Assembly: GCA_963805975.1 (NCBI GenBank)
Contig: CAWDVR010000001.1
Coordinates: 608,001 to 672,000 of the forward strand
Length of the DNA: 64,000 nt
Reading direction: 5' to 3'
From: an uncultured Acidobacteriota bacterium
GTDB lineage: Bacteria > Acidobacteriota > Thermoanaerobaculia > Multivoradales > SZUA-115
Shown: in pieces, positions 6,812-60,349 of the stretch
How the letters are laid out: the number at the start of each line of letters is the position of its first letter
Numbering within the stretch: the first letter of the stretch is position 1
Made by a program: the position numbers and the translations under genes
The notes under the pieces: model-generated
Seen by the model: only the letters and a program-made list of their open reading frames with translations
The model's database searches: none
What the model was told of the DNA's origin: nothing

Positions 6812-7017
6812 GCGTGTCGTAGCTCCGGCTACCACCCTCGAAGCCTCGAACCTCTGGCCCCTGGCGGAACGTCGCTCTGGGTCGAGAGCGCTGGGCAGTC
6901 GTGCAGGAAGGCGATGCCTCTCCTCACGTCCCGGTCGGCGCACCGGGCCAAGGTCCGATGGTACTTCAGCGCCTAATCGGATATGCTGTTAAATTAGGCA
7001 ACTACGGGAGGATCTAA

Positions 7018-7809
7018 ATGCCTGAGAAGAAAGCTGGGAAGGAAAAAGATCTCGAGAAGTACGACGACCTAGACAATCGTCACGACAAGTACCAGTCGGA
7101 TTTGGATAAAGGGCCAGACGCATTCTATCGGCGTGGCGAGGAGATCTCAGCCGATATGAGCGAAGAGGCCCGAGTCTCGCTCGAGATTCGCGAGAACAAG
7201 CAGAACGCGGCGCAGCTGACGAAACAGCTTCAGGAACTTGAGGTCGAGCGACAGAGGAAGGAATCCGAACTCTTGAAGCTCCGCGAGGAGTACATGGAAC
7301 GCGAGAATCGGAAGCCACCAGACTACGCGGAATCAACCGCTGGACGCGCGGAGATTGACCACGCCTACTCGGTCGTCTACACGTGGGCGCGGAACCAAAC
7401 GGATCAGTCGCTTTACGACGAGCATTGGAGAACCTGGCACAACCCTAGTCTTACACCAATTCAGCGGCAAGGCGCCCTGACCGCGATCAGCGATCGCCTG
7501 AATCGGCGGGAATTTAAGTTGCCCACTAACCGTCCTAAGGCAGAGTCACGGCGCCAGGCCCAATCAGAAGGCCATGCCTTCCCACCCGCAGTGCAAGACG
7601 CCGCCGAGTACAAAGACTACTACGTTAAGTTGAGAAGGTTCGCGGTCGCACTAACGCCCAAGCACCTGAGGGAGAACTTCAATCATGTTCATTCTCAGGT
7701 GTGTGCGACCAGCGATCCAGGGCTGCCGGAGTTGCTGCAACTAAAAGCGTATCTGCTCGATCTGCTTGCACGTCTAAGGTTTGCGCAAGATTACGCGGAG
7801 TCGCACTAG
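7018..7809 (+). CDS. Hypothetical charged coiled-coil protein in a lower-GC islet
   Basis: 263-aa ORF with a GGAGG RBS; E/K/R-rich heptad-like segment; more A/T-ending codons than the flanks; no family recognised. Confidence 0.6.
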   Translation: MPEKKAGKEKDLEKYDDLDNRHDKYQSDLDKGPDAFYRRGEEISADMSEEARVSLEIRENKQNAAQLTKQLQELEVERQRKESELLKLREEYMERENRKPPDYAESTAGRAEIDHAYSVVYTWARNQTDQSLYDEHWRTWHNPSLTPIQRQGALTAISDRLNRREFKLPTNRPKAESRRQAQSEGHAFPPAVQDAAEYKDYYVKLRRFAVALTPKHLRENFNHVHSQVCATSDPGLPELLQLKAYLLDLLARLRFAQDYAESH

Positions 7810-8016
7810 CGGCGGATGGGAGCCTCCGGAATCACACGTTCGACGACGGTTACAGCGGGACTCCTTGAGCTCAGTTCGAGGGCCCAAAACCTCGACCTTC
7901 AGTGCGAGCCTCACGGTGCGGGTATCCTCCCGGGGCACTCGGCGCCCCGAGCTGGGCCACCCACTCGCAATCGAGACTTGGACGAGCGCTTCCCGGCGCC
8001 CTGCTAGACTTTCTCG

Positions 8017-11511: not shown

Positions 11512-14500
11512 TCAGCCGTCCGTGGCCTGGGCGCGCAGCAGCGCCGCCAACCGTTCCCGCGCCCCGGCCGGCCCGCCGGGCGGCAGATCCTCCAGCACGG
11601 CCAGCGCCTCGGCGGCGATCGCCTGGCGGCGAGCCCGGTCCGGCAGCGTGGCGCGGCTGACCTCGTCCAGCGAGGCGAGGGCGGTGGCCGCGTCGCCCGC
11701 CTGGGCTCCCAGCCGCGCGCGGAGCAGCAGATCGGCGGCCGAGGCACTGGTGGCGAGGAGAGGGTCGAGCAGCCGCACCGCCTCGCTCGCCGCCACCGGC
11801 TCGCCGCCCGCGAGGCGCCAGGCGATGCGGAGGCGCGTGGCGGCGTTGTAGAGCGGGTGCCGGGGCGGGACCGCGGCGAGGGCCCCTTCGAGCGCCGCGA
11901 GCTCACCTTCTGCGCGCCCGTCGGCCCGCGGGTCGGCGAGGCGCCAGCCGGCGAGAACGGCGCTGGCGGCGGCGTCGCTCTCCGCCCAGGCGCGGAGCTC
12001 CGCCGGCCCGCGTTCCTCGGCCATCGCCGGGCGCAGGGCGAGGAGCAAGGCGGAACGCACCTCCTCCGAGGGCTCGGCCACGAGCGCCGGGTCCGCCGCG
12101 CGGCGGCGCCCTCCCGCGAGGTCCAAGAGGAGAAACGCGGCATGCCGCTCGGACGCCGAGGACAGGGCCGCCGCGGCGCGCAGCGCCCGAGCGGGCTGCC
12201 GCTGGCGGATGAGCCAGCGCACCACGTAGGTGCCGTCCGCGCCCGGCGGCAGGCGCCGGATGGAGTCGAAGGGGGCGATCAGGCGGTCGAGACCCGCGCG
12301 GCCGATGGGGTTCGAAAGGGCGCGGGGCGAGCGCGTCTGCAGCAGGTTCCGGCGGTCGCTGTTGAGCTCCGCACCGGCGGCGAGCTCGCGCGAGCCGGAG
12401 CCGTCGAGCACCCGGGCGAGGAGCAGATCCTCGGCGGTCTCGACCCCCACCAGGCGCCACGCCTCGGCCGAGGCCGCGGCGAGAAACGGCGCGCCGCCCC
12501 GCCCGAGCGGCTGGCCGGAGGCCACGAAGAGCACCGCTCCCCACGGGTACGGCTGGTAGACCTCGACGTGGGGAAAGGCCTCCGAGAGCGTCGCGACGAG
12601 GCTCCGGAGCAGGGGCGCGTCCACGAAGTCGAGCCCGATCCACTGCACGAAGACGCCGCCGGCAGCCAGATGCTCGCGGGCGAGCTCGAAGAACTCGCGG
12701 GTGAAGAGGTGCGAGGAGCCGCTGGTCCAGGGATGCGAGGGCTGCGACACGATGGCGTCGAAGCGCTGGCGCGAGAGGGTGAGCACGCTCCGCACGTCGC
12801 CCACGTGCAGCGACAGCCGCGGGTCGGCGAGCGGGTCGCGGCGCCGCTCCCCGGCGAGATGCCGGTTGGCGGCGATCATCTCGGGCTCGAGCTCCACCAC
12901 GTGGACCTGCTCCACGGACGAGGGCAGATCCTCGATCGAGTGGCCGGCCCCGAGCCCCACCACCAGCAATTTGCCGACGTTCTCCCGCACCGCGCCCGGC
13001 AGCAGCGTCAGCCAGCGGGCCACGGCGTAGCGGCCGGGGCGCGCGCCGGGCGGCTGCACCGCCGACTCCGGAAGCCCATTGCCGGTGAGGCGCCATTCGG
13101 CGCCGTCCTCGTGCAGCAGCACGGTGGCGCCCCGGCCCACGCCGTAGAACATCACTTCACCGAAGCCGGAGGTTGCCGAGGCTTCCGCGTCCACGGGCCC
13201 CTCTTCGACCGCCGCCGGTGTCTCGCGAGGTGGCCGGCGGGCGGTGTCCGCCGCCGGGCCGGCGAGCAGGATGGCGAGGGGCGAGGAGCGCAGCACGTTC
13301 CAGGGCGTGGGAGGCCGCACGAAGGCGAGGGCGGCGAGGCCCACGGCCGCCGCCACCAGGGCCCAGTCGAGCCGCGGGCGCTCGGCGAGAGCGACCACCG
13401 CGGCGAGCGCCAGGCTCACCGTCGCCGCCAGCGCCATGGCGCCGGCAAAGCCCAGGCCGGGCAGCAGCCAGAGGCCGGTCGCGACCGTGCCGGCCACGGC
13501 GCCGATCGTGTTCCAGGCTAGCGTCCGGCCGGCCGCGGTCGAGGCCTGGCGGGCGTCCCCGGCGAGCACGCGGACGGCGAGCGGGAAGGTCGCGCCCAGG
13601 CAGAGGGCGCCGGGCAGGATCAGGAGGCCGCCCAGGATCGCCGTCGCCGCCAGCCGGCTGTGCCCCGCGGCGGCGAGATCCGCGCCCCACGTCGGCACCC
13701 GGTCCGCGGCGGCGAAGGCGGCGAGCGACAGGAGCGCCGCGCCGAGCTGCGCCACCGCCAGCCCGAGGCGGGCTCGCTCGCGGCTCTTCGCCAGGCCGGC
13801 GGCGATCGACGCCCCCAGGGCGATGGCCACCAGGAACGCCGCCAGCATGGTGCCCAGGGCGTAGACGCTGCCGCCCACCAAGTGGGTGAGAAGCCGGCTC
13901 CAGACGATCTCGCAGCCCAGCGCCACCGCGCCAGAGAGCGCGGCCACCGCGAGCGGCCAGAACGGCCCGCGCTCACGGGTCGTGGGCGTGGCCCCGGCGC
14001 TCTCCTCGGGCGCCAGGCGGGGCGAGGCGGCCCCGAGCCCTGCCGCGAGGAGAGCTACGCAGACGTTGAGCCCCACGCCGGCCAGCGTGGCGCGGCCGAG
14101 CCCCAGCGTGGGGAGCAGCAGGAAGGCGGTTCCCACGGCCCCCGCCGCCGCGCCGAGCGTGTTGGCGGCGTAGAGCGTGCCCACGCGGGTGCCGATCGCC
14201 TCCTCGCGCCGTACCGCGTGCCGCACCAGGAGCGGCAAGGTGACTCCCATCAGAGCGGTGGGGACGAGGAGGATCAGGAACGAGGAGGCGAGCTGGAACA
14301 GCGTCGAAACGGCGAGCCCACCGTCCGCGCCGTACACCCCGTCGGTGGCCAGCAGCAGCACCTCGAGGCGGCCTGGCCGCGGCGATGAGCGAGGGCACGG
14401 CGAGCGCCAGCAGGCCGATGGCGAGCTCGATCACGGCATAGGCGAGAAGCGGCCGGGTACTACGGCGCGCCCAGCGCGCACCGGCCGCGGCACCCGCCGC

Positions 14501-14656
14501 GAGCCCGGTCATGTACGCGGCGAGGACCGAGACCAGCGCCAGCTCCGAGGCGCCGAACACGAGCGCCAGCTCTTCCATCCACACCGTCTCGAACACCAGC
14601 GCCGAAGTGCCGGAGAGCACGAAGCAGGCGAGGAGGAGCAGGAAGCGGAGGTCCAT
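11512..14656 (-). CDS. Fused multi-TM (MFS-like)/spermidine-synthase-like protein; one frameshift near 14372
   Basis: N-terminal FVLSGTSALVFETVW in one frame continues as PTALMGVTLP/LYAANTLG in another; methyltransferase-fold motifs LVVGLGAG, VELEP, GDVR, FDAIVSQPSHPW. Confidence 0.8.
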
Positions 14657-42857: not shown

Positions 42858-43688
42858 CTAGAGTGCGTCACGATCTGCAGTCTCCGACTGCTCTCCCCAC
42901 GCGAATAGCTGAATGCACAGTGAGATCATGTAGCTGATCTGCTTCCGACGAGCAAGGATTGCGTACCGGAACGCAGCCAGCAAAATAAGAAGCGAGGCGG
43001 CGATCAGCATCCATTTGGCTAGCGGGGACATGCCCCCTTTTAAGGTGAGAGTCACGGGGATGCAGAGGATGCTCGCTGCCGCATAGCCAAACGCGAGCAC
43101 GACCTCTGCTTGCAAAGCGTCTATCTCGCGACGCTCCTGGGTAAGTTGGTGGGCGTAGATTACATGCCAAAGTAGGTCAGCGTTGCCCTCACGAGAAAGC
43201 AGCGTAATCGTCTTCTCAAACGATGCCGCTTCATCATGGGTCAGCTTCGGGCCCCTATCCTTCCCGATGTTGGCAATGGACACGAACTGCAGAAACTCGA
43301 GGAGCATTGCTTTGTGAGCCTGGAGGGTCGCTCTAAAAAGCGCGCCTACAGGAAAAACCAGGATTGCCATTGACGACCAGCCCCATCCTCTGGACCTCGG
43401 AAGCCTAAGAAGAGTAGCTGCTGCGGGCAGCCGTCCGAGGAAGCCGAGAAGGCCGGAGAACAAGCAGAGAAGCAGCTCTAAAGAAGTCGATCCGACGACC
43501 GAGACAAACACAATAGCCAAAAGTACCAGGAAGGTATTTACTTCTTGCCCGAGTAGGACTGGCGTAAAACGCTTCATCTGCTGCAACGCCGACTCCCCGT
43601 AGAGCAGGAGGTATAGCTCAATCACGACCACTAGGCCGAGCATGTATTTATGCAGGTATCGCCACGCTCGTATGATGTCCAAGTTCAT
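42858..43688 (-). CDS. Hypothetical membrane protein in a lower-GC islet
   Basis: MNLDIIRAW...; several hydrophobic segments; AT-richer than the flanks; no family recognised. Confidence 0.6.
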   Translation of the reverse strand: MNLDIIRAWRYLHKYMLGLVVVIELYLLLYGESALQQMKRFTPVLLGQEVNTFLVLLAIVFVSVVGSTSLELLLCLFSGLLGFLGRLPAAATLLRLPRSRGWGWSSMAILVFPVGALFRATLQAHKAMLLEFLQFVSIANIGKDRGPKLTHDEAASFEKTITLLSREGNADLLWHVIYAHQLTQERREIDALQAEVVLAFGYAAASILCIPVTLTLKGGMSPLAKWMLIAASLLILLAAFRYAILARRKQISYMISLCIQLFAWGEQSETADRDAL

Positions 43689-43949
43689 CGGTTGTCTCTG
43701 TGACTCAGAGCTGAGAGAAGGTTGGGCGCCTCTTGCCACTTCGGCTTGGTCGGAAGACGCAATTCCCCACCAGTGAAGCAGCTCCCGCTAAAATTATAGC
43801 TGTGGCTCTGAAGCTTCTCCTTAGAAAAGGCTCGCAGGTTTTCAAGTTGAGAAGATAAGCCAAAGCATCCGCCGGTGCTCGGCTCGCTATGAGAGGTAGC
43901 TCAACCGTGCCGTAGATTCCGCCAGGTGGGCGAGGGCGCAATCACTCGC

Positions 43950-44420
43950 TCAGTACTCGACCTTGTCCGGCTTCGCGGCCCACTCTCGGAAGCCGGACTG
44001 GGCTTCGTCGCGCAGCAGCGGGCGCATCTCGAGGCGGCGGCCCGCGATCGGCAGCGGGATCTCGCGGTAGATGAAGTCGTCGTCGAAGCCGATGGCGGCG
44101 GCGTCCTCGCGAGTGTTGGCGAAGTAGAGGCGCGGGATGCGCGCCCAGTAGACCGCCGCCAGGCACATGGGGCAGGGCTCACAGCTCGTGTAGAGCTCGC
44201 AGTCCGACAGCTCGAAAGTACCCAGCGCCCGGCAGGCCTCGCGGATGGCCACGATCTCGGCGTGGGCCGTGGGGTCGTTCGTCGAGGTCACGCGGTTGCT
44301 GCCGCGGCCCACGATCTCGCCGCCGCGCACCACCACGCAGCCGAAAGGCCCGCCGTCGCCGGAGCGCAGGCCCTCCTCCGCCAGCCGGATCGCCTCGCGC
44401 ATGAACCGCTCGTCGCTCAT
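43950..44420 (-). CDS. guaD: Guanine deaminase (CDA-fold)
   Basis: GGPFG, NDPTAHAEIVAIR, SCEPCPMC, GFDDDFIY; next to uricase. Confidence 0.9.
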   Translation of the reverse strand: MSDERFMREAIRLAEEGLRSGDGGPFGCVVVRGGEIVGRGSNRVTSTNDPTAHAEIVAIREACRALGTFELSDCELYTSCEPCPMCLAAVYWARIPRLYFANTREDAAAIGFDDDFIYREIPLPIAGRRLEMRPLLRDEAQSGFREWAAKPDKVEY

Positions 44421-47873: not shown

Positions 47874-48119
47874 ATGTTGCCGCTCTACGAACAGCGCGCT
47901 GCCAAGAAACCCACCAACCTCAGCCTCAACAGCGATCTGCTCCGCCAAGCCCGTGACTTGGATATCAACCTCTCTTCGGTTCTGGAAGAGGCGCTGGAAG
48001 TAGTCGTCAGGCGCCGACTCGGCGAGCAATGGCTGGCCGAGAACCAGAAGGCCATCGCTGCCTACAACGAGCACGTCGAAACGCATGGCCTGTGGAGCGA
48101 CGGCCTCCGGACGTTCTGA
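47874..48119 (+). CDS. ccdA: CcdA antitoxin
   Basis: KKPTNLSLNSDLL, INLS, WLAENQKAIAAYN, ends RTF. Confidence 0.92.
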   Translation: MLPLYEQRAAKKPTNLSLNSDLLRQARDLDINLSSVLEEALEVVVRRRLGEQWLAENQKAIAAYNEHVETHGLWSDGLRTF

Positions 48120-48436
48120 TGCCGCAGTTCACGGTCTACCGCAACAAGAGCGCGCAATCCAGAGGGGGAATTCCTTTTCTGCTCGACGTGCAGAACGACC
48201 TGCTGAGCGACCTCAAGACTCGCGTAGTGATTCCTCTCTACTCGAAGACCTTGCTCGGCACCAAGCCGATCACCAGACTGGTGCCCGAGGTCCAGGTCGA
48301 GGGTAAGAAGCTCGTCCTGATGACGCCTCAACTCGCCGGCGTCGCGGTCAAGGATCTCGGTGAGCCGGTGGCGAGCCTCGTTGAGCGCCGGGCGGACATC
48401 GTCGCTGCGCTGGATCTGCTGATCACGGGGTTTTGA
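48119..48436 (+). CDS. ccdB: CcdB toxin
   Basis: MPQFTVYRN, PFLLDVQNDLL, TRVVIPL, ALDLLITGF. Confidence 0.92.
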   Translation: MPQFTVYRNKSAQSRGGIPFLLDVQNDLLSDLKTRVVIPLYSKTLLGTKPITRLVPEVQVEGKKLVLMTPQLAGVAVKDLGEPVASLVERRADIVAALDLLITGF

Positions 48437-55791: not shown

Positions 55792-55998
55792 ATGAGCTTC
55801 ACGATCGAGATCGAGCGCGAGGAGGACGGCCGCTGGCTGGCGGAGGTGCCCGCCCTGCCAGGCGTGCTTTGTTACGCCGCTACGCGTGAAGAAGGGATCG
55901 CTCGGGCGCAAGCTCTCGCTTTGCGGGTGATCGCCGAACGGCTCGAACACGGCGAGGTGCCCGCCGAGCTTCTTCAGGTGTCCTTCCAAGCAGCGTGA
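55792..55998 (+). CDS. hicB: HicB-like antitoxin (short, no DNA-binding domain)
   Basis: IEREEDGRWLAEVPALPGV...TREE. Confidence 0.88.
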   Translation: MSFTIEIEREEDGRWLAEVPALPGVLCYAATREEGIARAQALALRVIAERLEHGEVPAELLQVSFQAA

Positions 55999-56207
55999 GC
56001 CACTTCTCGGCGACCCGGGCGAGGCGCGTCCTGGCTGCGCTTCTGCGTCTCGGTTGGGTGGTCAAGCGTCAGAGCGGCTCGCACCGCACCCTCGCGAGGC
56101 CGGGATGGCCCGACTTTGTCTTCGCCTTCCACGAGAACGAGGAGATCGGACCTCGAATGCTGTCGAGGATCGCTCGCCACACCGGCCTGCGACCTACGGA
56201 TCTCTGA
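55995..56207 (+). CDS. hicA: HicA toxin
   Basis: LGWVVKRQSGSHRTL, AFH..EEIG..ML..I; GTGA overlap. Confidence 0.88.
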   Translation: MSHFSATRARRVLAALLRLGWVVKRQSGSHRTLARPGWPDFVFAFHENEEIGPRMLSRIARHTGLRPTDL

Positions 56208-56326: not shown

Positions 56327-57147
56327 CTACGGGCAGTCGTAGGGGTAGCACACCTCGCCGCCGCTGCAGTGCTGTTTGCTCTCGCCCTCGTACTCGTGGC
56401 AGGTCATCGGCCCGCAGGGGAGCAGAGGCCGGGTTCCCACTGGTAGCCCGCAGGGTCCCAGCCTGCCGCGAAGTTGGAGGTCCCGGCGAGGTGGGTGTCG
56501 GGGATGCCGTCGCCGTTGGTATCGGCGAAGGTGGGCCCGACGACCTTGCCGCCCGGGCCGGGCGTAAAGGACCAGGGCAGCGACTGCGCGGGGAAGGTGA
56601 AGCTGCCCGCGAGCTCGAGCGGGCGCGCCGCGCGGCCGGAGACCGGCACGAAGGTCAGGCGCACATCGACCGCCAGCGGGGCGACGAAGGTGCCGCCGCG
56701 CTCGTGGCTGCGGTAGATGTGCATCGTGGTCACACGCTGGGTGCCGGCGAGGCTGACGTGGACGTGGAAAGCGCCGCACGGCGTCTCGAGCGGGGCGGAG
56801 CTGACCATCGACAGGGCCTGGAACTGGACGCGCGTCACGGCACGGCCGCTCTCGTCGAAGGCGGCGTCGTCGAGGCGGGCGATCACCGTGTCGGTGCCGC
56901 GAAGCTGGCCGGGGACCGCGGTCTCGATCGGCAGGCCCTTGAAGGTGACGCGGCCGGTGAAGGCCGGCGAGCTCCGGCAGAAGAAGCCGGCGGGGATGGG
57001 GTCGTCGGCGAAGTCGTAGAACGTCTTGCCGTTGTCGAGGGTGACGAACACGTCGCTGCCGCGCTCGATCACCGGTGCGGCGTTTGCGGGGAAGGCACTG
57101 ATCGCGATGGTAACGGCGAGCGCGATCAGAAGTGCGGTCCTCTTCAT
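56327..57147 (-). CDS. Secreted paralog 4 of the Cys-rich-tip array; 1-nt deletion in a C run near 56418
   Basis: AAGGAG RBS, signal peptide, conserved core; restoring one C gives the tip LCSPCGPMTCHEYEGESKQHCSGGEVCYPYDCP*. Confidence 0.8.
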
Positions 57148-57175
57148 TTCGATCTCCTTGAGTTCCGGTGCGGTC

Positions 57176-57997
57176 TTAGGGACAGAGGACGTTCTCGCAG
57201 CCGGGTGGGGTGTACGGGAAGGAGCAGTGCATCTTGCCCGATCCGTCGTCGTGGCAGGTCACGCCCTGGCACGGGTTGCAGTCGTACCACTGGTAGACGG
57301 CAGGGTCCCAGCCCGCCGCGAAGTTGGAGGTCCCGGCGAGGTGGGTGTCGGGGACGCGGTCGCCGTTGGTGTCGGCGAAGGTAGGGCCGATGCCCTTGGC
57401 GTCCGAGGAGGGCGGGAAGGACCAAGGCAGCGCCTCCGCCGGGAAGGTGAAGCTGCCGTTGAGCTCGAGCGGACGCGCGGCGCGGCCGGAGACCGGTACG
57501 AAGCGCAGGCGAACGTCCACCGCCAGCGGAGCGACGAAGGTGCCGCCGCGCTCTTCGGTGCGGTAGATGCTCATAGAGGTCACGCGCTGGGTGCCGGCGA
57601 GGCTGACGTGGACATGGAAAGCGCCGCAGGTTGTCTCGAGCGGCTTGGAGCTGACCAGGGACAGGGCCTGGAACTGGACCCGGGTCACGGCGCGGCCGGT
57701 TTCGTCGAAGGTGGCGTCGTCGAGGCGGGCGACCACGGTGTCGGCGCCGTGGAGCTGCCCGGGGACGGCGGTCTCGAGCGGCAGGCCCTTGAAGGTGACG
57801 CGGCCGGTGAAGGCCGGGGAGCCCTGGCAGAAGAAGCCGGCCGGGATGGGGTCGTCGGCGAAGTCGTAGAACGTCCTGCCGTTGTCATGGGTGGTGAACA
57901 CGTCGCTTCCGCGCTCGATGACCGGCGCCGCGTTCGCGGGCAGGGTGCCGAGCGCGATTGCGAGGGCCAGTACCGTCAACAGTGCGATTCTTCTCAT
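57176..57997 (-). CDS. Secreted paralog 3 of the Cys-rich-tip array
   Basis: AAGGAG RBS, MRRIALL signal peptide; tip CNPCQGVTCHDDGSGKMHCSFPYTPPGCENVLCP*. Confidence 0.85.
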   Translation of the reverse strand: MRRIALLTVLALAIALGTLPANAAPVIERGSDVFTTHDNGRTFYDFADDPIPAGFFCQGSPAFTGRVTFKGLPLETAVPGQLHGADTVVARLDDATFDETGRAVTRVQFQALSLVSSKPLETTCGAFHVHVSLAGTQRVTSMSIYRTEERGGTFVAPLAVDVRLRFVPVSGRAARPLELNGSFTFPAEALPWSFPPSSDAKGIGPTFADTNGDRVPDTHLAGTSNFAAGWDPAVYQWYDCNPCQGVTCHDDGSGKMHCSFPYTPPGCENVLCP

Positions 57998-58025
57998 GGC
58001 GATCTCCTTGGTTACAGGTGCGTTC

Positions 58026-58841
58026 CTAGGGACAGACAATCTCTTGGCAGTGGGGCGGAGTGGGCGGCAAGGAGCAGTGCCACTTGCCCGTTCCGTCGTC
58101 GTGGCAGGTTTCCTGGCACTGGTTGCATTCGCCCCACCAGTTGACCTCGCTCGGGCGCCAGCCCGCCGCGAAGTTGGAGGTCCCGGCGAGGTGGGTGTCG
58201 GGGATACGGTCGCCATTGGTGTCGGCGAAGGCGGGGCCGGGGCCCTTGGCGCCAGATCCGGGAACGAAGGCCCAGGGCAGCGCCTGCGCGCCGAAGGTGA
58301 AGCTGCCGGTGAGCTCGAGCGGGCGTGAGGCGCGGCCGGAGACGGGCACGAAGCGCAGGCGCACGTCGACCGCCAGCGGGGCGACGAAGGTGCCGCCGCG
58401 CTCCTCGCTGCGGTAGATATTCATGGTGGTCACGCGCTGGGTGCCGGCCAGGCTGACGTGGACGTGGAAAGCGCCGCACGGCGTCCTGAGGGGGCTGGAG
58501 CTGACCAGGGACAACGCCTGGAACTGGACGCGAGTCACGGCACGGCCGCTCTCGTCGAAGGTGGCGTCGTCGAGGCGCGCGACCACGGTGTCGGCGCCGT
58601 GGAGCTGGCCGGGGGTCGCAGTCTCGAGCGGCAGGCCCTTGAAGATGACGCGGCCGGTGAAGGCCGGGGAGCCCTGGCAGAAAAAGCCGGCCGGGATGGG
58701 GTCGTCGGCGAAGTCGTAGAACGTCCTGCCGTTGTCATGGGTGGTGAACACATCGCTTCCGCGCTCGATCACCGGCGCCGCGCCCACGGGGAGGGCGGTG
58801 ATCGCGAGCGCCAGCACTACCAGCAGAACCGTTCTCCTCAT
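58026..58841 (-). CDS. Secreted paralog 2 of the Cys-rich-tip array
   Basis: AAGGAG RBS, signal peptide; tip CNQCQETCHDDGTGKWHCSLPPTPPHCQEIVCP*. Confidence 0.85.
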   Translation of the reverse strand: MRRTVLLVVLALAITALPVGAAPVIERGSDVFTTHDNGRTFYDFADDPIPAGFFCQGSPAFTGRVIFKGLPLETATPGQLHGADTVVARLDDATFDESGRAVTRVQFQALSLVSSSPLRTPCGAFHVHVSLAGTQRVTTMNIYRSEERGGTFVAPLAVDVRLRFVPVSGRASRPLELTGSFTFGAQALPWAFVPGSGAKGPGPAFADTNGDRIPDTHLAGTSNFAAGWRPSEVNWWGECNQCQETCHDDGTGKWHCSLPPTPPHCQEIVCP

Positions 58842-58865
58842 GGCAGTCTCCTTTCCTGGAAGTGA

Positions 58866-58895
58866 CGCCGGGAGCTGGAACGCGGGCTCCCGGCG
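58866..58895. other. Intergenic stem-loop between paralogs 1 and 2
   Basis: CGCCGGGAGC-10 nt-GCTCCCGGCG. Confidence 0.55.
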
Positions 58896-58924
58896 CGAAG
58901 ATCAGTCACCGCCATCCCGCTGCA

Positions 58925-59740
58925 TCACGGGCACACGGCGGGCTGGCAGACGACCAACGGGCCGGAGCAGTGCTCCTTGCCTCCGTCCATGTGGCATTGC
59001 CGCGGCTCGCAGGTGAAGCAGCCGGTTTCCACCTGGTAACCGTTGGGGTCCCAGCCCGCCGCGAAATTGGAGGTGCCGGCGAGGCGCGTGTCGGGAATGC
59101 GGTCGCCGTTGGTGTCGGCCAGCGAGGGCCCGACCACCTTGCCGCCCGGGCCGGGCGCGAAGGACCACGGCAGGGACTGTGCGGGGAAGGTGAAGCTGCC
59201 GCTGAGCTCGAGCGGGCGCGAGGCGCGGCCGGCGACCGGCACGAAGCGCAGGCGCACGTCGACCGCCAGCGGGGCGACGAAGGTGCCGCCGCGCTCGTGG
59301 CTGCGGTAGATGCTCATCGTGGTCACGCGCTGGGTGCCGGCGAGGCTGACGTGCACGTGGAAGGCGCCGCAGGGCGTCTGGAGGGGGCTGGAGCTGACCA
59401 GTGACAGGGCCTGGAACTGGACCCGCGTCACGGCACGGCCGCTCTCGTCGAAGGTGGCGTCGTCGAGGCGGGCGATCACCGTGTCGGCGCCGCGGAGCTG
59501 GCCGGGGACCGCAGTCTCGAGCGGCAGGCCCTTGAAGGTGACGCGGCCGGTGAAAGCCGGCGAGTTTCTACAGAAGAAGCCGGCCGGGATGGGGTCGTCG
59601 GCGAAGTCGTAGAACGAGGTTCCGTTGTCGACAGTGGTGAACACGTCGCTGCCGCGCTCGATCACCGGCGCGGCGGTCAGGGGAGCAGATCCGAGCACCA
59701 ACGCGACGGCGAGCACTACCCAAAGGCTTCGGTTCCTCAC
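58925..59740 (-). CDS. Secreted paralog 1 of the Cys-rich-tip array
   Basis: AAGGAGG RBS, GTG start, signal peptide; tip CFTCEPRQCHMDGGKEHCSGPLVVCQPAVCP*. Confidence 0.85.
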   Translation of the reverse strand: MRNRSLWVVLAVALVLGSAPLTAAPVIERGSDVFTTVDNGTSFYDFADDPIPAGFFCRNSPAFTGRVTFKGLPLETAVPGQLRGADTVIARLDDATFDESGRAVTRVQFQALSLVSSSPLQTPCGAFHVHVSLAGTQRVTTMSIYRSHERGGTFVAPLAVDVRLRFVPVAGRASRPLELSGSFTFPAQSLPWSFAPGPGGKVVGPSLADTNGDRIPDTRLAGTSNFAAGWDPNGYQVETGCFTCEPRQCHMDGGKEHCSGPLVVCQPAVCP

Positions 59741-59893
59741 GTCTTGCCTCCTTTCGAGAGACAGGGACGCCGGACGTAGGCCCGCCCGGCTAGGGGTGAC
59801 AAGGAGATTCGATGGAACATATGCGCAAAGCGCTCTAATTCTCTATATCTTCAGGTGACTCTGCTTCTCCGGAATTGCTTCAGTCGAAGAAGC

Positions 59894-60349
59894 TTAGTAG
59901 TCGAAGCGCGCGGCGATGTAGCCGCTGTAATGCCAGTTCTCTGCGTAGCAGGTGGGGGAGCCGACGTAGATCTTGAAGTAGTTGCCCACACCGGCCGCCT
60001 GGGAGAGGCCGTAGGCCTTGCCCACGCAGGAGGCGCAGCGCAGCGAGCCGTTGCGGTACACGTCCCAAAGGCCGATGATCTCGTCGTTGTCGCTCGAGCC
60101 CACGGAGATCAGGCGGAACTCGTACTGCGTGGCGCCCACGAAGCCGATGGCGTTCGAGAACGCCTGGAGCGTTTTCTCCTGCCAGCTCGAAACGGAGTTG
60201 CCGCTGGTCGGGCTGTACCAGGCGCCGGTGTCGCCGTCGGCGATGGCGATCGGCTTGTCCGACCACACGCTGTGGACCGGCTGGGCGGCGAGCGGAGCGG
60301 CGGCGAGCAAGGCGATCAGGACGAAGGCGAGGCGGAGCGAAGCGCGCAT
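59894..60349 (-). CDS. Small secreted hypothetical protein (about 151 aa)
   Basis: AAGGAG RBS, MRASLRLAFVLIALLAAAPLAAQ signal peptide; beta-strand/aromatic-rich; CASC plus a third Cys. Confidence 0.75.
   Translation of the reverse strand: MRASLRLAFVLIALLAAAPLAAQPVHSVWSDKPIAIADGDTGAWYSPTSGNSVSSWQEKTLQAFSNAIGFVGATQYEFRLISVGSSDNDEIIGLWDVYRNGSLRCASCVGKAYGLSQAAGVGNYFKIYVGSPTCYAENWHYSGYIAARFDY

Follow-up and report, generated by a model that had tools for sequence, protein, structure and literature searches.

Within a 64,000-nucleotide stretch of an uncultured Acidobacteriota bacterium (the window; positions 608,001 to 672,000 of contig C1), four consecutive genes, g1 to g4, encode paralogs that join a conserved core to a diversified C-terminal tip rich in cysteine and histidine. 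We favor reading their products as exported, single-domain, soluble eight-stranded beta-barrels of the DynF type, which likely hold a small hydrophobic molecule in a pocket tuned by the tips. Comparison of two structure models makes it very probable that the tip belongs to the fold: in the predicted barrel, strands 1–6 come from the core and strands 7 and 8 from a CH...HC hairpin of the tip, and in the model built without the tip these two barrel strands are gone. As the last two strands, the tip is likely a diversified pocket wall rather than a separate peptide. A first-pass annotation of the same DNA had proposed a constant carrier with an attached mini-domain, a view from which we depart given this placement of the tip and its occurrence only at the ends of cores.

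The features are listed below in window coordinates; residue numbering and the full structure model are those of g3, and the tip classes are defined by cysteine spacing.

58925..59740, minus strand: g1, 271 amino acids (aa), GTG start; signal peptide and barrel domain; GP-class tip
58026..58841, minus strand: g2, 271 aa; likely chimera that joins a PP-class tip to a core from the GP-class clade
57176..57997, minus strand: g3, 273 aa; likely chimera that joins a PP-class tip to a core from the GP-class clade
56327..57147, minus strand: g4, frameshifted as assembled; GP-class tip
59748..59753, minus strand: AAGGAG ribosome-binding site of g1
58848..58853, minus strand: AAGGAG ribosome-binding site of g2
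58004..58009, minus strand: AAGGAG ribosome-binding site of g3
57154..57159, minus strand: AAGGAG ribosome-binding site of g4
57215..57259, minus strand: g3 residues 247–261, the CH...HC hairpin, predicted barrel strands 7 and 8
57347..57373, minus strand: g3 residues 209–217, D-x-N-x-D-x-x-x-D loop on an optional inserted hairpin, probable Ca2+ site
56417..56420, no strand assigned: run of four G at the g4 frame break, probably an assembly indel (from frame comparison)

Predicted barrel and its probable relation to DynF

Most of the model, an eight-stranded antiparallel barrel, superposes on DynF. DynF forms a dimer; its eight-stranded barrel encloses palmitate in a sealed hydrophobic cavity, and the role of the protein is unconfirmed (PMC8725005). 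The DynF family DUF6073 (PF19550, PDB 6ubl) and DUF6004 (PF19467) are among the closest known systems and are the nearest named clusters by language-model features (0.76–0.84), values that serve only as leads. Alignment of the family with DUF6073 by hhalign gave a probability of 2–3% and E values of 0.017–0.027, a weak result obtained with only 1–5 DUF6073 sequences. Neither PF19550 nor PF19467 matched any of 74 family members, and a PF19550 search of this genome returned other genes and not those of the array; the DUF6073 protein that the genome does encode gives a DynF match at E 1.2e-15. We consider the family probably related to DynF, and not a member of PF19550.

The array family differs from DynF in several respects: firstly, it has a signal peptide, disulfides, an acidic loop and histidines on strands 7 and 8, none of which appears in the DynF sequence printed in PMC8725005; secondly, it has many paralogs per genome and occurs as multi-domain repeats; thirdly, the array locus, unlike that of DynF, is without a biosynthetic cluster, either enediyne or polyketide. 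Avidin-type and other soluble eight-stranded barrels (2c1q, shwanavidin, YceI/BcnB) show ~10% identity or less and no shared motifs; the array family has long insertions relative to the avidin type, and the middling Z scores may reflect a common arrangement only.

Pocket residues, disulfides and competing explanations

The anatomy of the pocket was derived from sequence and covariation, not from coordinates. Hydrophobic and charged residues take turns along the strands, most of the inward positions are hydrophobic, and hydrophobic pairs on non-adjacent strands covary (L114-L158, M142-W192, V89-L158), which argues that the hydrophobic face lies inside and that the protein is soluble. Asp32, Thr36, Thr87 and Arg91 share an inner face, each being kept in 217–237 of 239 distant copies of the domain, and Asp32 covaries with Arg91. 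In the tips of 118 aligned close relatives, five of the six cysteines and His257 are invariant, His249 is present in 117 and Cys267 in 106. His257 recurs in 299 of 306 close and medium members and in 157 of the distant copies, a further 39 of which have gaps there; position 249 of the distant copies is His in 87 and Glu in 27, and position 255 is His in 51. The cysteines are a subfamily addition, found in 92 and 52 of the 239 distant copies. The two histidines lie 6–8 residues apart in 251 of the 274 tails with the motif, and hairpin turn motifs bring the two histidines face to face, and likewise the two cysteines. Two positions beyond His257, 99 of 154 distant copies have V, I or L, which suggests that His257 faces inside; we infer that His249 and His257 point inward and the Cys248-Cys258 pair outward.

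Among all residue pairs, Cys57-Cys124 ranks 4th and Cys248-Cys258 7th by covariation, and the cysteine count is even in 283 of 306 tails; at the level of prediction, these data support the disulfides that had been proposed for the family. The acidic loop at 209–217 had likewise been put forward as a possible Ca2+ site, and its residue pattern makes this plausible: acidic residues occupy positions 1, 3, 5 and 9, as in a DxDxDG-type loop, and across the 118 close relatives D209 is invariant and D213 and D217 are each conserved in at least 90%. FG-GAP_3 matches g4 at E 1.5e-4, below the cut-off. We regard the loop as a probable Ca2+ site, judged by its sequence, on an optional insert that is absent from 125 of the 239 distant copies.

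In the mechanism that we propose, the signal peptide would direct Sec-type export, after which the hairpin would close the barrel begun by the core. His249 and His257 would then face each other in the cavity near Asp32, Thr36, Thr87 and Arg91, and may grip the polar end of a ligand, either directly or through an ion of the Zn or Cu type. Cys248-Cys258, suggested by covariation, and two further putative bonds would staple the variable loops on the outside, while Cys57-Cys124 would staple the core and the acidic loop would bind Ca2+. One result weighs against this anatomy of the pocket: of two alignments, the narrower showed strong direct covariation of tip with core, and the other did not reproduce it. 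A complex prediction of core (24–234), tip (235–273) and Zn, with scores of 0.54, 0.01 and 0.00, was counted for no side.

The same barrel might serve as a secreted metalloenzyme, with His249, His257 and a His or Glu at 255 holding catalytic Zn, Cu, Ni or Fe and the tips shifting the substrate range. We consider this unlikely: 60 of the 157 His257-bearing distant copies have no upstream His or Glu at -7, the domain is repeated 2–6 times per chain, and no pathway neighbors are conserved in 119 loci. There is only a small probability that the barrel scavenges non-covalent heme or a metal chelate, with His257 (perhaps with Met142 opposite) as axial ligand and Arg91 reaching a propionate. No TonB receptor or heme transporter recurs beside the family (one TonB receptor among 86 neighbors scanned), Met142 is replaced by Leu or Ile in 59 of 239 distant copies, and two histidines side by side on one wall, as we place them, could not both be axial ligands.

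An eight-stranded outer-membrane protein, such as an OmpA/NspA-like adhesin whose surface loops vary under phage or predator pressure, is very improbable. The family lacks the beta-signal of outer-membrane barrels (NspA 1p4t, OmpA, OprF), its last residue being Pro in 152 and Phe in only 13 of 306 members with no C-terminal aromatic signal; strands 7 and 8 are polar and have no hydrophobic face; Asp32 and Arg91 lie on the hydrophobic face, which the covariation across non-adjacent strands places inside; and the domain is repeated in large soluble-type proteins.

Least probable of all is the carrier proposed at first, displaying or releasing a disulfide-rich peptide (a knottin, a defensin, a ribosomally synthesized and post-translationally modified peptide or a toxin tip), or bearing an eight-ligand metal finger or a CX4CH heme-c site. 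The tip does resemble knottins, defensins, RING-H2 fingers (C3H2C3) and cytochrome c3-type CX4CH sites in having six cysteines within ~35 residues in the order C3-H2-C3; the C-x4-CH motif occurs in 214 of 306 tails (the upstream Cys is missing in 19, and the rest have other spacings), identity falls sharply after residue 230, the linker is variable, often with a Lys just ahead of the first Cys, tips appear to move between cores, and the tip weakly resembles the U1-C zinc finger (E 0.07). Against this, the tip is not an independent domain, since its removal takes away two strands, and its spacing differs from those systems. Tip searches of 41 genomes found no free tips: 13 of 15 matches lay at the end of a core, and the other two were chance matches, non-coding or in the wrong frame. 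No peptidase, modifying enzyme, exporter or immunity gene is conserved nearby, and a Pfam scan of 56 tips gave no match, zinc fingers included (best E 0.03). Disulfide connectivity in knottins and defensins is interleaved, such as 1-4, 2-5, 3-6, a pattern that the covariation of the third and fourth cysteines (Cys248 and Cys258) does not fit. That many homologs retain the His and lack the cysteines argues against both a two-metal, eight-ligand finger and covalent heme c, and the apparent pairing of Cys248 with Cys258 may also bear on the atypical CX3-4CH heme site suggested earlier.

The array and the evolution of its tips

The genes follow one another head to tail on the minus strand, which the first-pass annotation had not specified. 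They are separated by 83, 28 and 28 nt and have AAGGAG 6–7 nt ahead of all four starts and divergent N-termini that resemble signal peptides (judged by eye and by a predicted helix at 2–17). The description of four tandem genes of ~270 aa thus stands for the consecutive paralogs, their ribosome-binding sites and their signal-peptide-like N-termini, but not for g4, which encodes only 247 aa as assembled. The core motifs and the abrupt switch after NFAAGW are present as reported; the core was overstated as near-identical, at 85–90% aa and 87–90% nucleotide identity (residues 24–230; longest identical run 40–68 nt per pair). Tips share 38–59% identity, consistent with a diversified C-terminal part on a conserved and likely secreted core, and signal peptides, tips and spacers differ in all four genes, which speaks for four real copies. 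The reported Cys/His pattern is matched by g1–g3, except that the spacer after HCS is 5–7 rather than 4–7 residues, and the Lys two residues ahead of the second His is present. The minus strand of the array yielded no sigma-70 promoter-like site and no terminator.

The g4 frame stops at 56404; its tip goes on in another frame to a stop at 56327, with the Cys/His pattern and the stop retained. The frameshift is probably an assembly error. Two relatives supplied 142 genes that have clear counterparts here, and ten of these aligned in more than one frame (eight after two paralog effects were dropped), which makes an assembly indel in g4 plausible. Each public sequencing run covers at most 0.18 of the stretch, and in the four compared in detail no listed piece spans the array or lies over the break at 56417–56420; one public-run contig skips 56281–56440 and may come from a relative whose last tip differs, but this lead is too weak to use. 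The RNA run held no piece matching the stretch at 95% identity or more. Another probable assembly frameshift lies at window ~14373–14656 (C1:622373-622656), in a long gene whose counterpart in the same-genus genome G001 aligns in two frames.

G001 has a single copy at the syntenic place, with g1 as its likely counterpart, so either the array is a lineage-specific expansion or copies were lost from G001. We placed 234 cores on a tree (FastTree, midpoint root, members below 55% identity to g3 excluded, no topology test) and scored tips with PP and GP profiles built without the array genes. Tip class changes 24 times on this tree as compared to at least 102 times in 200 shuffles, indicating that a tip is as a rule passed on together with its core. 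A single clade (support 0.999) within the GP-tip group unites the four array cores with one close metagenomic relative; PP-class tips otherwise fall mostly in a separate clade. Profile bits (PP/GP) are nonetheless split within the array, at 51/21 for g3, 46/19 for g2, 33/57 for g1 and 20/41 for g4. Synonymous divergence (dS) of the cores is 0.24–0.32 among g1–g4 versus 0.48–0.60 to G001, and the g1 tip is closer to that of G001 (59%) than to those of g2 and g3 (41–44%).

These data suggest an array of two old tip classes on one recently homogenized core. As judged from tree, profile scores and dS, the simplest reading is that the array grew from one gene to four and that gene conversion or recombination homogenized the cores while the old tips persisted; the different tips would give different pockets, and so a repertoire of pocket variants. 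Pooling 86 close pairs gave core dS 0.33 and a ratio of nonsynonymous to synonymous divergence (dN/dS) of 0.30, versus tip dS 0.79 and dN/dS 0.42, a dS contrast that is inflated because the pairs were picked for high core identity, are not independent and in a few cases include the truncated g4 tail. The suggested comparison of dN/dS thus finds the tip higher than the core, which we take as a sign of gene conversion or recombination more than of positive selection. Ten local pairs, with tip values of 0.45–1.18 over ~40 codons, had hinted at positive selection on the tip, which the pooled pairs do not uphold. A broader proposal, which we rate as speculative and unlikely, is that soil Thermoanaerobaculia build a repertoire of secreted binders or metalloenzymes by recombination between an unchanging scaffold of six strands and exchangeable two-strand cassettes held by disulfides. 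Each cassette would complete the barrel and bring its own His site, making one pocket wall a modular part, and giant secreted proteins of uncultured bacteria would commonly carry the domain as a repeat.

Family distribution, genomic context and significance

No family was recognized in the first-pass annotation, and our searches agree. Pfam and NCBIfam scans of the four proteins gave no fitting model, their sole hit being FG-GAP_3 below the cut-off, and a Pfam scan of 74 members was uninformative. The same holds for PDB sequence searches with three alignments (an adiponectin match at E 6e-4 reflects three copies of one 14-residue hairpin) and for Foldseek searches of PDB and viral models. A literature search, with most subscription journals outside its scope, found no paper on the family.

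The family is nonetheless large. We found 1,284 g3 homologs among 7,608 candidates, which with the conservation of the tip residues in close relatives makes a chance pattern untenable; seven of the best 120 carry a taxon label, all Thermoanaerobaculia, and 78 of 79 loci from named genomes are labeled Acidobacteriota or a group within it. A profile search of 1.84 billion representatives (clusters at 50% identity) returned 3,169 matches at E <=0.001 and 712 at 1e-30. By profile, 17 of 41 related genomes carry the family, with up to 21 matches per Thermoanaerobaculia genome; across the phylum, where eight candidates were scored per genome, 7 of 301 do. Arrays in relatives, which had been worth seeking, were found: 17 of 119 loci hold more than one copy, and one holds seven. 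A seven-gene family array beside UnbV/ASPIC and FG-GAP genes (L021; G020:C53:608-7539) has a three-His variant, CH...H-x-H-C, and its genes are the best candidates for a metal site. Of the distant proteins examined, 54 of 153 carry 2–6 copies of the domain, and its partners in 36 long proteins scanned include TSP3, dockerin-like, S8, FG-GAP, GEVED and IPTL-CTERM. The 5.36-Mb genome itself has two more full, distant paralogs (C3:712808-713788 and C2:728985-729950) and, right after a large S8 peptidase-like gene, what is left of the 3' part of a seventh family gene, its Cys/His tip frameshifted (C1:1143652-1143960).

The array is flanked by a purine-catabolism operon and hicAB on one side, and by a small secreted gene, an S8 peptidase, a CHRD gene and a predicted transporter on the other; no neighbor is conserved across the 119 loci. 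The hicB-hicA-type toxin-antitoxin pair (window 55792-56207, plus strand; HicA above the cut-off, HicB below) lies directly downstream, at a site that holds other genes in G001, among them one, beside the single family copy, for a bacterial protein of 136 aa whose RING finger passes the Pfam cut-off (E 7e-14; L037:8904-9311). The small gene directly upstream (window 59894-60349, minus strand) encodes a secreted-looking 151-aa protein with no Pfam or NCBIfam match; it is 74% identical and syntenic in G001 and was not found at the other loci fetched. A ccdAB-like pair, identified by eye, sits inside the purine-catabolism operon (window 47874-48436, plus strand), and GC content dips to 0.58 at window 7001-8000 and 0.55 at 43001-44000, as compared to ~0.71.

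Of 40 loci from relatives, 6 have an MMPL/sterol-sensing exporter next to them, in 4 genomes and 3 arrangements, and in this genome MMPL genes are likewise found close to the DUF6073 and DUF6004 genes. In the closest subfamily MMPL occurs at only 1 of 79 loci, and we rejected a general partnership there; MMPL proximity may point to a hydrophobic cargo in the superfamily as a whole but does not suggest a partner of the array. The DUF6073 genes form a near-identical tandem pair with signal peptides (L061; C1:990737-992479); this locus and that of the DUF6004 gene (L064; C1:819111-820376) are each 5–9 kb from an MMPL gene and a gene that is LolA-like by eye. DUF6073 occurs in 4 of 151 genomes of the class, all four of which, in a small and related sample, also carry the array family. 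A further MMPL gene lies ~6 kb from a gene pair at C3:330137-336435, a polyketide synthase of 1,947 aa and, after it, a thioesterase-like gene of 153 aa, which by eye resemble an enediyne-type PksE/TE pair.

Together, these studies give a predicted fold and candidate functional residues (Asp32, Arg91, His249, His257) to a large domain family for which neither Pfam nor NCBIfam offers a model and which has multiplied strongly in soil Acidobacteriota, and they link it to DynF, whose role in enediyne biosynthesis is not settled. They also caution that cysteine-rich C-termini need not be metal fingers or peptides. Should ligand specificity prove to lie in the tips, the family would be a rare case of a diversified C-terminal region integral to the fold, and a natural scaffold with a swappable pocket wall that would be useful for protein engineering.

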